Virus record (IMG/VR): IMGVR_UViG_2548876947_000005
Strand: one strand, 5' to 3'
DNA: 5,037 nucleotides
From: a virus
Taxonomy: Duplodnaviria > Heunggongvirae > Uroviricota > Caudoviricetes
In this document: piece by piece, positions 118 through 5,037 of the stretch
Layout of the letters: each line of letters begins with the position of its first letter
Position numbering within the stretch: position 1 is the stretch's first letter
The notes under the pieces: model-generated
Databases searched by the model: none
The model's input: only the letters and a program-made list of their open reading frames with translations
Told to the model about the DNA's origin: nothing
Made by a program: the position numbers and the translations under genes

Positions 118-976
118 GTCGCTCATGGAACATAAACAATCACGTCAGTGGCCGCTTTTTTTGAGCGGGTCCTTTCCGGTGATCCGGAGCGTTACGGGGC
201 GGAAGGCGCGCAGTTTTTCTCTATTTATGGAAATTTTCCGGTTTAAGGCGTTTCCGTTCTTCTTCGCCGTAACTTTATGTTTTTATTTAAAACACCACCT
301 GAAAAGAAAGGAAATGGAAAGCATTATTTGGGACTGAAAATGGCATGATCGTTTCCTTTCTCCTGAACTTGGGTTACTGAACACTTACTCTACTGTAGGA
401 ACTCGAAATGCAGAGCTATAAGGTAATGATGACGATTAAACTGAGAGGTTCGATTAGAAAAGTATCTGAATACTAGTAAATTTCGCGAGCTGACATTCTG
501 TATTTTTCATAGGAAACAGAATATTGGAAAAGATGCGCTTGTGCTCTCTACTGAGGGTCGGGAAATTCGTATTTGTGCCAGTTATTGTGGAAAGTAAAAG
601 CTCTGGTCTGCTGCAAATGATTTGCGTTGCTGTGTCTATCTGAATGTCAGGAGCGCGTATAGCGTCCAGTAATATGATGTTTGTAGTAGGGGCTTCTGTG
701 ACGATAGGCTACGTTGCTCAAATGCTATCCCCACAATCTTGTGGGTAGCCGAGTAAGCAAGATACTGATAACAAGGCATTCTATGCATTTGGTGGTGTAA
801 CGAATACAACCGGCCAAGGGGATCTTGTTCTGCTGGCTTATGGTCAACGCCGAATCGGTGGTACTATCATTTCTGCGAGCATCTACCTTGAAGATAACAC
901 GTAAAAATGTTCGACGAAGCGCTAGCCAAGGAAAAATAATGGAAATGAGTAATATCGGGAGCTAAACTTGGTTGGT

Positions 977-1070: not shown

Positions 1071-1832
1071 TTATTTGTTTGACAAGTTTTGCCATGTTTG
1101 AATGAGGAAAACTGACATGCTTCCTGCAAGATTAACAGCTAAAAGAGCATGTCGATCAGCAGGTTTTATTGGTTTTTTCCCTATGCCATGAGCATCGCCA
1201 TATTTATTACGTAAATTGCCAAGGCCATTTACCACAGATGAGCAACCTTTAAGTATCTGCTTAAAAATCTGTTCTCCGTGCTGATCTGGAGCCAAATTAA
1301 GTGCTTTGGATGTTAGTTTATAAAGTTCACTCATGTCTAGATTTCTATCATAAGTAATACTTAAATCATCAAGAATGTGTTTACAAACCGTCTCAAGCAA
1401 TGTTCTAGATGCTGTAATAGCCCCTTCAGGATCGTTGTTTCTTCTGTCTAGAGCTTTTGCCCAAGCTTCATTCACGCCACACTCATCATAGCTTCTTAAT
1501 CCGTCAGTTATGTGAACATCCGAAGGCGTAGCATGATTCTCTTCGAAATAATCGAATAACGGTGTGAATTCAGTTGAGATGAAGTACTCGCGCTCTTTAT
1601 ATGTTGGGAACTTCTGCTGTATGAATCCCCAAAATTTTTTTAGGCTTCTGTTTTCTCTTACGAATGCAGGAAGCAACAGTTTTAATACAGAGTTTTGTAT
1701 AAAGTACGATCTAAGAGAAATATAATTTTCACTATTATCTCGAGGTCCTCCTCGAGCAACCTTAATTAATAAGTTCTCTAAATGTCTAGCTCGTTCCTGA
1801 TCCGACGAAAACTCATTGAGAAAATTATCCAT
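1071..1832 (-). CDS. HEPN-type Abi_C / AbiJ-like abortive-infection family protein, 253 aa (candidate RNase toxin or defence effector)
   Basis: Long minus-strand ORF with ATG at 1832-1830 and SD AAGGGG 7 nt upstream (plus coords 1840-1845), TAA stop at 1073-1071. C-terminal region has a helical HEPN-like layout with R-x6-H motif RNKYGDAHG (residues ~208-216, plus coords 1188-1211), consistent with the Rx4-6H HEPN signature and with the Abi_C family as I recall it. Strongly AT-rich, unlike the adjacent phage genes. Family assignment is by recall, not HMM. Confidence 0.6.
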   Translation of the reverse strand: MDNFLNEFSSDQERARHLENLLIKVARGGPRDNSENYISLRSYFIQNSVLKLLLPAFVRENRSLKKFWGFIQQKFPTYKEREYFISTEFTPLFDYFEENHATPSDVHITDGLRSYDECGVNEAWAKALDRRNNDPEGAITASRTLLETVCKHILDDLSITYDRNLDMSELYKLTSKALNLAPDQHGEQIFKQILKGCSSVVNGLGNLRNKYGDAHGIGKKPIKPADRHALLAVNLAGSMSVFLIQTWQNLSNK

Positions 1833-1876
1833 TTTAGGACCCCTTACACTTTTTCTATGGACTATACCAGTGATAG

Positions 1877-2062
1877 CTACCGCTTGCCTCCAGCATCTCT
1901 GACCCCGTAAGCATGGCCTTGATCGTAAGGTTTTGAACCCGTTTCAAGTACAATTCTTGGAGCTTTTGGGGGTAAAACATTGCCCTGAACCGAACGAAAG
2001 CCATCTCGATATCCTTGCTCAAATTCTTCTCTACGGGTTTGAACATCAACTGAATTAGTCAT
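1877..2062 (-). CDS. Small hypothetical protein, 61 aa, Gly/Arg/Asp-rich; likely first gene of a two-gene operon with the HEPN-like gene
   Basis: ATG at 2062-2060 with canonical SD AAGGAG (plus coords 2069-2074) and 6-nt spacer; TAG stop at 1879-1877, 44 nt before the next start. By hand count about 17 of 61 third codon positions are G/C while overall GC is near 47%, a coding-like bias in this frame. No recognisable family. Confidence 0.4.
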   Translation of the reverse strand: MTNSVDVQTRREEFEQGYRDGFRSVQGNVLPPKAPRIVLETGSKPYDQGHAYGVRDAGGKR

Positions 2063-2134
2063 TAATAACTCCTTACATATCCTGTGTATTGCATGATGTA
2101 TTGCAACGGTTCGTTTTGGAAGTAATTCTGAAGC

Positions 2135-2143
2135 ATATTATCA
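2135..2143 (-). promoter_or_regulatory. Candidate extended -10 promoter element (TGaTAATAT on minus strand) for the two-gene cassette
   Basis: Minus-strand sequence TGATAATAT about 70 nt upstream of the 61-aa ORF start. No good -35 (AGGATG at 17-nt spacing). Weak, sequence-only call. Confidence 0.2.
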
Positions 2144-2183
2144 CTAAAAATCATTCACATCCTTTCATATTTGACTCATGTAA

Positions 2184-2972
2184 CCCAAGCATGAGGTGAA
2201 TCCGCAGATGACTCTGCGTCGCCTGCCGGATGAAGATCCACAGAATCTGGCGGACCCGGCTTACCGCCGCCGTCGCATCATCCTGCAGAACATGCGAGAC
2301 GAAGAGCTGGCCATTGCTCAGGTCGAAGAGATGCAGGCCGTTTCTGCCGTGCTCAGGGGCAAATACACCATGACCGGTGAAGCCTTCGATCCGGTTGAGG
2401 TGGATATGGGCCGCAGTGCGGCGAACAACATCACACAGTCCGGCGGCACGGAGTGGAGCAAGCGTGACAAGTCCACGTATGACCCGACCGACGATATTGA
2501 AGCCTACGCGCTGAATGCCAGCGGTGTGGTGAATATCATCGTGTTTGATCCGAAAGGCTGGGCGCTGTTCCGTTCCTTCAAAGCTGTCAGGGAGAAGCTG
2601 GATACCCGTCGCGGCTCTAATTCCGAGCTGGAGACAGCGGTAAAAGACCTGGGTAAAGCGGTGTCCTATAAGGGGATGTATGGCGATGTGGCCATCGTCG
2701 TGTATTCCGGACAGTACGTGGAAAACGGCGTCAAAAAGAACTTCCTGCCGGACAACACGATGGTACTGGGGAACACTCAGGCACGCGGTCTGCGCACCTA
2801 TGGCTGCATTCAGGATGCGGACGCACAGCGCGAAGGCATTAACGCCTCTGCCCGCTACCCGAAAAACTGGGTGACCACCGGCGATCCGGCGCGTGAGTTC
2901 ACCATGATTCAGTCAGCACCGCTGATGCTGCTGGCTGACCCTGATGAGTTCGTGTCCGTACAACTGGCGTAA
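2184..2972 (+). pseudogene. E: Lambda-like major capsid protein E, 5'-truncated (C-terminal ~262 codons only)
   Basis: Translation PKHEVNPQMTLRRLPDEDPQNLADPAYRRRR...DPDEFVSVQLA matches the C-terminal two-thirds of phage lambda gpE nearly residue for residue. The frame opens right after an in-frame TAA at 2181-2183. The ~80 N-terminal codons are absent and no SD precedes GTG 2196 or ATG 2208. TAA stop at 2970-2972. Confidence 0.85.
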
Positions 2973-4721: not shown

Positions 4722-4997
4722 ATGCCTGTACCAAATCCAGTAATGCCGGTGAAAGGGGCCGGGACCACCCTGTGGGTTTATAAGGGGAACGGTGACCCTT
4801 ATGCGAACCCGCTTTCAGACGTTGACTGGTCGCGTCTGGCTAAAGTTAAAGACCTGACGCCCGGCGAACTGAGCGCTGAGTCCTATGACGACAGCTATCT
4901 CGATGATGAAGATGCGGACTGGACTGCGACCGGGCAGGGGCAGAAATCTGCCGGAGATACCAGCTTCACGCTGGCGTGGATTGTAGTGGCACAGTAA
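4722..4997 (+). pseudogene. V: Lambda-like major tail protein V, 3'-truncated by IS insertion (N-terminal ~86 codons plus 5 junction-derived codons)
   Basis: ATG at 4722 with SD GAGGA (4713-4717). Translation [50 protein letters not shown]...DTSFTLAW matches the N-terminus of lambda gpV (about 246 aa in lambda). Similarity stops at ~4981, where the IS-like repeat begins; the frame then reads IVVAQ and stops at TAA 4995-4997. Confidence 0.8.
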
Positions 4998-5037
4998 GTT
5001 TGGCCACCTGATTAAAGGTGATATTCTCACCTCAACA
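4982..5037 (+). mobile_element. Partial IS3-family insertion sequence (IS911-like), left-end terminal inverted repeat; element continues beyond the window end
   Basis: Plus strand from 4982 reads TGTAGTGGCACAGTAAGTTTGGCCACCTGATTAAAGGTGATATTCTCACC..., sharing TGTAGTGG-N11-TGGCCACC with the inverted sequence at 21-56. Begins with 5'-TG. Starts exactly where homology to lambda V ends. Confidence 0.5.

Follow-up and report, generated by a model that had tools for sequence, protein, structure and literature searches.

An Abi_C-family HEPN gene as probable single-gene defence cargo of a helper-embedded satellite in a lambdoid capsid gene

The viral record IMGVR_UViG_2548876947_000005 (Caudoviricetes) is a DNA stretch of 5,037 nucleotides (nt), referred to below as the window, and it carries two minus-strand genes for proteins of 253 and 61 amino acids (aa). 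The original prediction regarded the pair as one compact cassette and as the best candidate for an undescribed defence or toxin module. The genes are arranged as it described them: the two open reading frames (ORFs) run in the same direction, 44 nt apart, and both have strong Shine-Dalgarno sites. Read on the minus strand, the ATG of the 61-aa gene is preceded at 7 nt by TAAGGAG, and that of the 253-aa gene, also at 7 nt, by AAGGGG. The genes and their parts are listed here.

1071-1832, minus strand: gene for the 253-aa HEPN protein of the Abi_C family (AbiJ/SadR type), a putative defence effector (ORF with ATG; Pfam, PADLOC and PHROG matches)
1536-1832, minus strand: N-terminal all-helical domain, residues 1-99, proposed as a sensor or autoinhibitory module (AlphaFold2 model)
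1074-1511, minus strand: C-terminal HEPN domain, residues 108-253
1188-1211, minus strand: catalytic-type HEPN motif R208-N-K-Y-G-D-A-H215 (sequence reading; homologue alignment)
1833-1876, minus strand: 44-nt spacer with the AAGGGG Shine-Dalgarno site of the 253-aa gene
1877-2062, minus strand: gene for the 61-aa small protein, a real but rare gene of the ends of phage-inducible chromosomal islands (PICIs) (ORF with ATG, TAAGGAG Shine-Dalgarno site)

The 253-aa protein had been called an HEPN protein of the Abi_C kind from its RNKYGDAHG motif, a call that a profile match to some non-HEPN family could have overturned. The profile that it matches is Pfam Abi_C (PF14355), at 83 bits (gathering cut-off 24; E = 1.7e-23), with residues 169-244 aligned to profile positions 2-82 of 83. 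The AbiJ profile of PADLOC (PDLC02347) aligns through its positions 160-275 of 281 to residues 129-245 (E = 2.4e-22), PHROG 23253, a family of unknown function, spans the full length of the protein (E = 1.4e-91), and the RefSeq name is 'abortive infection family protein' (WP_001358138.1). No NCBIfam model matches the protein, nor does any PDB chain by sequence. A homologue search returned more than 4,400 proteins, the best 120 of which are all about 250 aa long with full-length coverage, and homologues from Anaerolineae and Methylococcaceae are still 53-57% identical. The 253-aa protein is by sequence an unremarkable representative of a widespread family that already has an annotation, that of the putative single-gene anti-phage HEPN RNases.

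The motif and the predicted fold agree with this assignment. The conserved RNase motif R-(polar)-x(3-5)-H is present as R208-N-KYGDA-H215, with the R208 codon at 1209-1211 and the H215 codon at 1188-1190. Among 36 diverse homologues, R208, N209, G212, D213, H215 and G216 are invariant, as are the helix DPEGAITxxRxLxExxCKxIL and several N-terminal residues. The AlphaFold2 model of the protein is all-helical with a mean predicted local distance difference test (pLDDT) score of 82. It consists of an N-terminal domain (residues 4-99, pLDDT ~90), a disordered linker (100-107) and a C-terminal helical bundle of the HEPN type.

The N-terminal domain is a different matter. Residues 1-99 find no match in Pfam, NCBIfam or PADLOC, and none at E<=1 to the Pfam domains AbiJ_NTD3, NTD4 and NTD5; a homologue search with residues 1-128 only, limited by its word index, gave four candidates and a single match. 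Mean pairwise identity among alleles is 51% in this domain vs 67% in the HEPN domain. The two domains also differ in this way between the Abi_C alleles of two other loci, L014 (6883-7644) and L020 (620-1384), which are 90% identical over the HEPN domain (dN 0.056, dS 0.49, for nonsynonymous and synonymous divergence) and 46% identical over the N-terminal domain (dN 0.50). The Abi_C alleles are recombinant mosaics, in which a conserved HEPN effector is joined to a swapped N-terminal domain. A survey of HEPN proteins proposed that the N-terminal domains of AbiJ recognise components of the phage and keep the HEPN toxin in check, and described NTD1 and NTD2 as mostly helical and ~100-140 aa long (PMC3710099). 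A fast-evolving, swappable N-terminal domain fits that model, and the mosaic alleles lend themselves to mapping how such sensors acquire specificity.

From position 56 on, the window is 100% identical to Escherichia coli RM14723 (locus L001). The GC content is 0.36-0.42 across ~900-2250 vs 0.52-0.60 in the lambda-like genes from 2250 on, a shift in base composition that the original prediction had already remarked. It had also placed the cassette next to a prophage remnant, which is correct and imprecise: the cassette sits within a helper-embedded PICI (HE-PICI) of ~11 kb, of the '11capE' type, that is inserted in a lambdoid prophage's major capsid gene E. The satellite features in the window, and the doubled motif of related elements, are as follows.

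2184-2972, plus strand: C-terminal fragment of capsid gene E, split by the satellite (Pfam Phage_cap_E positions 94-328 of 329)
2150-2195, no strand: attR, the right end of the satellite (blastn boundaries 2150-2171; capsid fragment from 2184)
2083-2105, plus strand: doubled HE-PICI attP motif TGTGTATTGCAtgaTGTATTGCA, 20 nt upstream of the 61-aa start codon
L002 7829-7848, L014 7707-7726, L020 215-234 and L023 4957-4976: the doubled motif at other loci
165-316, plus strand: satellite cos site, left edge of the cargo slot (conservation; position upstream of Nu1)
317-1070, no strand: decayed portion of the slot with no intact gene (no ORF >57 aa)

RefSeq lists the C-terminal fragment of E as a pseudogene 'missing N-terminus'. 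The N-terminal fragment is found in L001 ~11.4 kb upstream of it, beside the integrase gene. Between them, the satellite encodes an integrase, an AlpA-like helix-turn-helix protein, an Icd-like protein, a DUF4222 protein, a primase and a single-stranded DNA-binding protein, together with major capsid and decoration proteins of its own and a second helix-turn-helix protein. Both fragments of E, two copies of the doubled motif, the int, alpA and pri genes and a cos site are therefore all present, as in HE-PICIs of the capE type. The diagnostic doubled motif tgTGTATTGCantgTGTATTGCa at 2083-2105 is ~80 nt from the capsid fragment, and its second copy is at attL. In HE-PICIs, a doubled TGTATTGC motif has been described at ~81 bp from the crossover, with two copies per element, and was proposed as a binding site for Int or AlpA (PMC10111431).

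The cos site bounds the cargo on the other side. The block at 165-316 is unannotated and conserved in 3,662 E. coli genomes; it is also found in the lambdoid phage PhiR46_1, 72 nt upstream of the terminase gene Nu1. It comprises a cosQ-like segment (GGGTCCTTTCCGGTGATCCG...GTTACG), a variant cosN and a cosB-like segment (TTTATGGAAATTTTCCGGTTTAAGGCGTTTCCG). The canonical lambda cosN, GGGCGGCGACCT, is not present even when 2 mismatches are allowed, and the assignment is made because of the flanking cosQ- and cosB-like homology and the position upstream of Nu1.

Homology to sister HE-PICIs ends after cos (~316) and resumes at ~2150-2171 according to blastn; the interval is therefore a variable cargo slot. 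In sister elements the same slot holds a TIR-domain protein, a DUF262 protein with an HEPN protein, or a 57%-identical Abi_C paralogue, and the presence of unrelated genes of defence type, TIR and DUF262 with HEPN, is what interchangeable defence cargo looks like. It is established that the defence systems carried by PICIs vary, as cited in passages of PMC11364771 and PMC13586616. Cargo and defence are not topics of the HE-PICI paper, in which the word 'cargo' is absent and 'defense' is confined to the reference list (PMC10111431). Over the handful of loci that document its contents (Abi_C, TIR, DUF262 with HEPN, the small gene), the cos-to-attR interval of HE-PICIs and of PICIs integrated at fis or hpt behaves as an exchangeable defence slot, which is mildly new.

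The part of the slot to the left of the two genes, 317-1070, is a decayed remnant of a satellite module for a tail_I-like and a 116-aa protein. Positions 713-885 retain ~70% nucleotide identity to the Lambda_tail_I-like gene of L023, and no Rfam match or tandem repeat was detected in the region. A ~200-aa Lambda_tail_I-like protein and a 116-aa protein form a conserved pair that adjoins the slot at loci L011-L013, L042-L047, L023 and L035, and this pair occurs in fis PICIs as well as in HE-PICIs. In the satellite of the window, the tail_I-like gene terminates at ~78.

In the other HE-PICIs examined, too, the doubled motif immediately precedes the first cargo gene. Because it always falls in the leader or promoter region of that gene, cargo expression might be coupled to the recombination proteins of the satellite. 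One could then suppose that the HEPN protein serves the satellite life cycle, for example by degrading helper or host transcripts after induction to favour PICI packaging, and that its expression is coupled to the binding of Int or AlpA at the motif. The constant position of the motif and the frequency of the Abi_C family in fis PICIs and HE-PICIs agree with such a role. The family also has members outside satellites, however, next to restriction-modification (R-M) systems, on plasmids both conjugative and non-mobilizable, and in genomes of Anaerolineae and Methylococcaceae; the sister slots hold unrelated genes of defence type, and the targets of AbiJ and SadR are infecting phages and plasmids. 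We regard a role in the satellite life cycle as quite unlikely.

The satellite itself is damaged. In RM14723, the integrase (L001 2886-4120) and primase (L001 6588-8338) genes are annotated as frameshifted, and the satellite is therefore decaying; this copy is probably immobilised, leaving the helper capsid gene E permanently split and the cargo genes intact. The original prediction placed the cassette between insertion sequence (IS) copies, and for the source strain this is borne out by terminal inverted repeats of the IS3 family (IS911-like) at 1-55 and ~4982-5037. The reverse complement of 1-55 begins GTAGTGGTCAACAAAAACTGGCCACC and the right end begins TGTAGTGGCACAGTAAGTTTGGCCACC. The match to RM14723 begins only at position 56, and the source strain therefore has an additional IS copy, which interrupts the tail_I-like gene. 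The frameshifts, the ~750 nt of gene remnants in the slot, the IS copies on both flanks and the lack of a promoter-like site upstream would all suit inert passenger DNA in a decaying satellite, with genes that are intact yet unexpressed or non-functional in this strain. Against this, neither ORF is disrupted, and each is 98-100% identical across 4 E. coli strains, one E. albertii and several metagenome or viral contigs; the 253-aa protein also keeps every residue that is invariant in its family. There is only a slim chance that the cargo is inert.

The small gene was described as matching nothing. This is true of established families, as the 61-aa protein has no match in Pfam, NCBIfam, PADLOC or PHROG and no fold match; a family of small proteins does exist, as an HMMER scan of 1.8 billion representatives found four related clusters of 57-63 aa. 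These relatives share invariant positions G17, Y18, G21, S24, P35, G42, Y46, G49 and G53, are rich in Gly and Tyr and contain an internal repeat, QGxxxGxR. The gene has a dN/dS of 0.16-0.21 in comparison with two relatives, and AlphaFold2 models the protein as a helix-loop-helix (pLDDT 84). Its sequence record marks the ORF as a real gene. As a rare small protein of satellite ends, it is mildly new and makes a clean, testable target.

Whether the 61-aa gene belongs with the Abi_C gene is the central question at this locus. A simple scan located terminator-like and promoter-like sites neither between the two genes nor just upstream of them; since the 44-nt spacer holds no such site, co-transcription of the two genes is plausible here. 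All loci found to encode relatives of the 61-aa protein were gathered, and each was scanned with profiles of both families. An Abi_C gene lies beyond the small gene in two lineages only. One is the window type, represented in E. coli and E. albertii as well as in several contigs of metagenome or viral origin, all 98-100% identical. The other is L020-22, in which the small protein is 68% and the Abi_C protein 54% identical to those of the window, and the spacer is 185 nt. In ~11 other lineages with the small gene, an Abi_C gene is absent within 4 kb.

Where the small gene occurs without Abi_C, it is typically the first inward-facing gene at the attachment (att) end of a PICI, in elements integrated at fis, at hpt or in a capsid gene. 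At L035/L040 and L032/L038, fis is followed by the small gene and, further on, by genes for a 116-aa protein, a tail_I-like protein and TerL; at L041, hpt is followed by the small gene; and at L023, the small gene is located between a truncated capsid gene E and a convergent lipoprotein gene. Nucleotide homology between L023 and the window is unbroken from the capsid fragment through attR and into the first half of the small gene, where it ends, and the small gene is therefore tied to the satellite end and not to Abi_C. Relatives of the small gene also occur at L030 and L036, and one lies beside HsdR in an rpoD-adjacent island of Edwardsiella.

The genes that directly follow the doubled motif in HE-PICIs assort in every combination: both the small gene and Abi_C in the window and L020, the small gene only in L023, Abi_C only in L014 and L015, and neither in L002 and L003. 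Twelve distinct contexts of Abi_C homologues were examined, and in 10 of them the gene is solitary. These include the nearest relatives of both paired alleles, namely an Abi_C gene of Lonsdalea (P0006) that is 79% identical to the allele of the window and starts 171 nt after fis, and one of Klebsiella (P0092) that is 82-86% identical to the L020 allele; the small gene is absent from both loci. Further solitary homologues are found in fis PICIs of Klebsiella and Enterobacter. In Serratia, the homologue adjoins a type I R-M system, and on plasmids of Salinivibrio, Burkholderia and Pseudomonas it is near toxin-antitoxin, DUF4435 or R-M genes. No conserved non-homologous small partner was found upstream of distant Abi_C homologues. 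A 48-aa ORF upstream of the Serratia gene was considered as a partner and rejected, as it encodes an unrelated hydrophobic peptide.

Co-occurrence was also compared with chance. An Abi_C-family gene is carried by ~46 of ~384 E. coli genomes with the same PICI backbone (~12%), and at this rate at least two Abi_C neighbours are expected with P = 0.47 for 13 lineages and P = 0.20 for the 7 PICI lineages. When HE-PICI lineages only are counted, two of the three that have the small gene have it beside Abi_C (P ~0.04 at 12% occupancy), which leaves some chance of a weak facultative link between the two genes.

These data bear on the proposal that the genes form a two-gene module, with the 61-aa protein acting as an antitoxin, chaperone or modulator of this Abi_C allele, so as to restrain the HEPN RNase or tune its trigger, and both genes co-transcribed from an att-proximal promoter. 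The proposal would account for the co-directional arrangement with two strong Shine-Dalgarno sites and a short spacer free of terminators, for the second pairing in L020-22, for the HE-PICI co-occurrence and for the restriction of the small gene, among complete E. coli genomes, to those with the Abi_C allele of the window; the unexplained avoidance of self-toxicity by SadR also speaks for it. It is at odds with the absence of the small gene from the nearest relatives of both paired alleles, the ~11 small-gene lineages without a nearby Abi_C gene, the unequal spacers (44 vs 185 nt), the end of the L023 homology inside the small gene, the unremarkable co-occurrence over 7 or 13 lineages and the action of tested relatives as single genes (PMC13590631, PMC12184496). 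We consider a module of this kind unlikely, and a dedicated two-gene system is without solid support. In the original prediction, the part that saw HEPN defence cargo is supported, and the part that saw an unnamed two-gene system is not, given that homologues are solitary and that the two genes assort independently.

The 61-aa gene is, in our judgement, probably a separate resident of the satellite att end, neither required for the HEPN protein nor specific to it. It is improbable that the 57-63 aa proteins, encoded right after the doubled motif of fis, hpt and capsid PICIs, are undescribed satellite-end factors that modulate whatever cargo is adjacent, with the window as a facultative two-component variant of Abi_C; such a factor could restrain the HEPN RNase, as a brake or an antitoxin, or be a switch coupling defence to the integrated or excised state.

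For the 253-aa gene, the likely reading is a self-contained, single-polypeptide RNase of the abortive-infection type, from the Abi_C (AbiJ/SadR) branch, carried as exchangeable cargo of an 11capE HE-PICI. The N-terminal helical domain (residues 1-99) would hold the C-terminal HEPN domain inactive and would recognise an infection cue. If AbiJ and SadR are a guide, this cue is probably connected with a phage protein for single-strand annealing or recombination. Once triggered, the HEPN domain would cleave RNA, probably in the form of a dimer with a composite R208/N209/H215 site. Cleavage would stop translation and abort the infection, and the aborted infection would shield the lysogen and its satellite against competing phages.

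Several points count against this single-gene reading. The confidence of the AlphaFold2 model is lowest at the motif loop itself (residues 211-220, pLDDT 58). The sensor role of the N-terminal domain is proposed by analogy, from the hypothesis on AbiJ-NTD in PMC3710099, because the domain has no recognisable fold or family. The simple scan gave no sigma-70-like promoter upstream of the genes, the integrase and primase of the RM14723 copy are frameshifted, and the small gene adjoins Abi_C in HE-PICI lineages at P ~0.04. Finally, we found no experimental test in the literature of the 253-aa protein or of any gammaproteobacterial Abi_C member of ~250 aa. If the single-gene reading is true, the gene represents nothing new in principle, being a further allele, in a satellite of known type, from a single-gene HEPN defence family that is abundant; the cos-to-attR defence slot, the mosaic N-terminal domains and the small satellite-end protein are mildly new.

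Among known systems, the satellite resembles 11capE HE-PICIs in its gene organisation, its insertion in a lambdoid capsid gene E and its doubled motif ~80 bp from the crossover. Two types of toxin-antitoxin system were set aside for the cassette. HEPN/MNT systems (PDB 5yep, 7ae2) have an MNT partner; the 253-aa gene has none and encodes an N-terminal domain of its own instead. A two-gene HEPN toxin-antitoxin assignment was rejected, as there is no conserved co-varying partner and the 61-aa protein matches no family. A type III system of the AbiF, AbiV or ToxIN-like kind was rejected as well, as there is no repeat-RNA antitoxin and no Rfam match at E<=1. The sole tandem array is weak (22 nt, 2.2 copies of a 10-nt unit, score 30) and lies at 1078-1099, in the 3' end of the 253-aa gene; the only direct repeat detected is one 14-nt pair, at chance level.

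The 253-aa protein resembles AbiJ in having a non-catalytic N-terminal domain followed by a C-terminal HEPN domain, and AbiJ confers abortive infection as a single gene. It differs in that its N-terminal ~125 residues are outside the AbiJ profile match. A full-length AbiJ homologue was rejected, as only profile positions 160-275 of 281 align, and because the N-terminus of the profile and Pfam AbiJ_NTD3, NTD4 and NTD5 are unmatched; PADLOC-style calling would probably not label the protein AbiJ. The mutants that escape lactococcal AbiJ map, in 9 of 9 cases, to annealing proteins of the Sak or Erf type (PMC12184496; PMC13064643).

A closer parallel is SadR, the defensive RNase of Staphylococcus aureus, an enzyme that breaks down RNA in vitro and blocks both phages and plasmids (PMC13590631, 2026). 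Both SadR and the 253-aa protein are the products of single genes on or beside mobile elements and end in a Pfam Abi_C domain, and the 253-aa gene is conserved without an obligate neighbouring partner, as befits a single-gene Abi_C system; AbiJ and SadR are both known to work in this way (PMC13590631, PMC12184496). The motif of SadR, RNEYGDAH (R225/H232), compares with RNKYGDAH (R208/H215) here, a likeness known from the motif and residue numbers alone, and its R, N and H are needed for RNase activity and defence (PMC13590631). The two proteins differ in their hosts, which belong to different phyla, and in their location, the SCCmec/rlmH locus vs an HE-PICI slot. Like SadR, the 253-aa protein falls among the Abi_C proteins that lack an annotated N-terminal domain, which make up the largest class of the SadR survey (2,257 of 2,815; PMC13590631).

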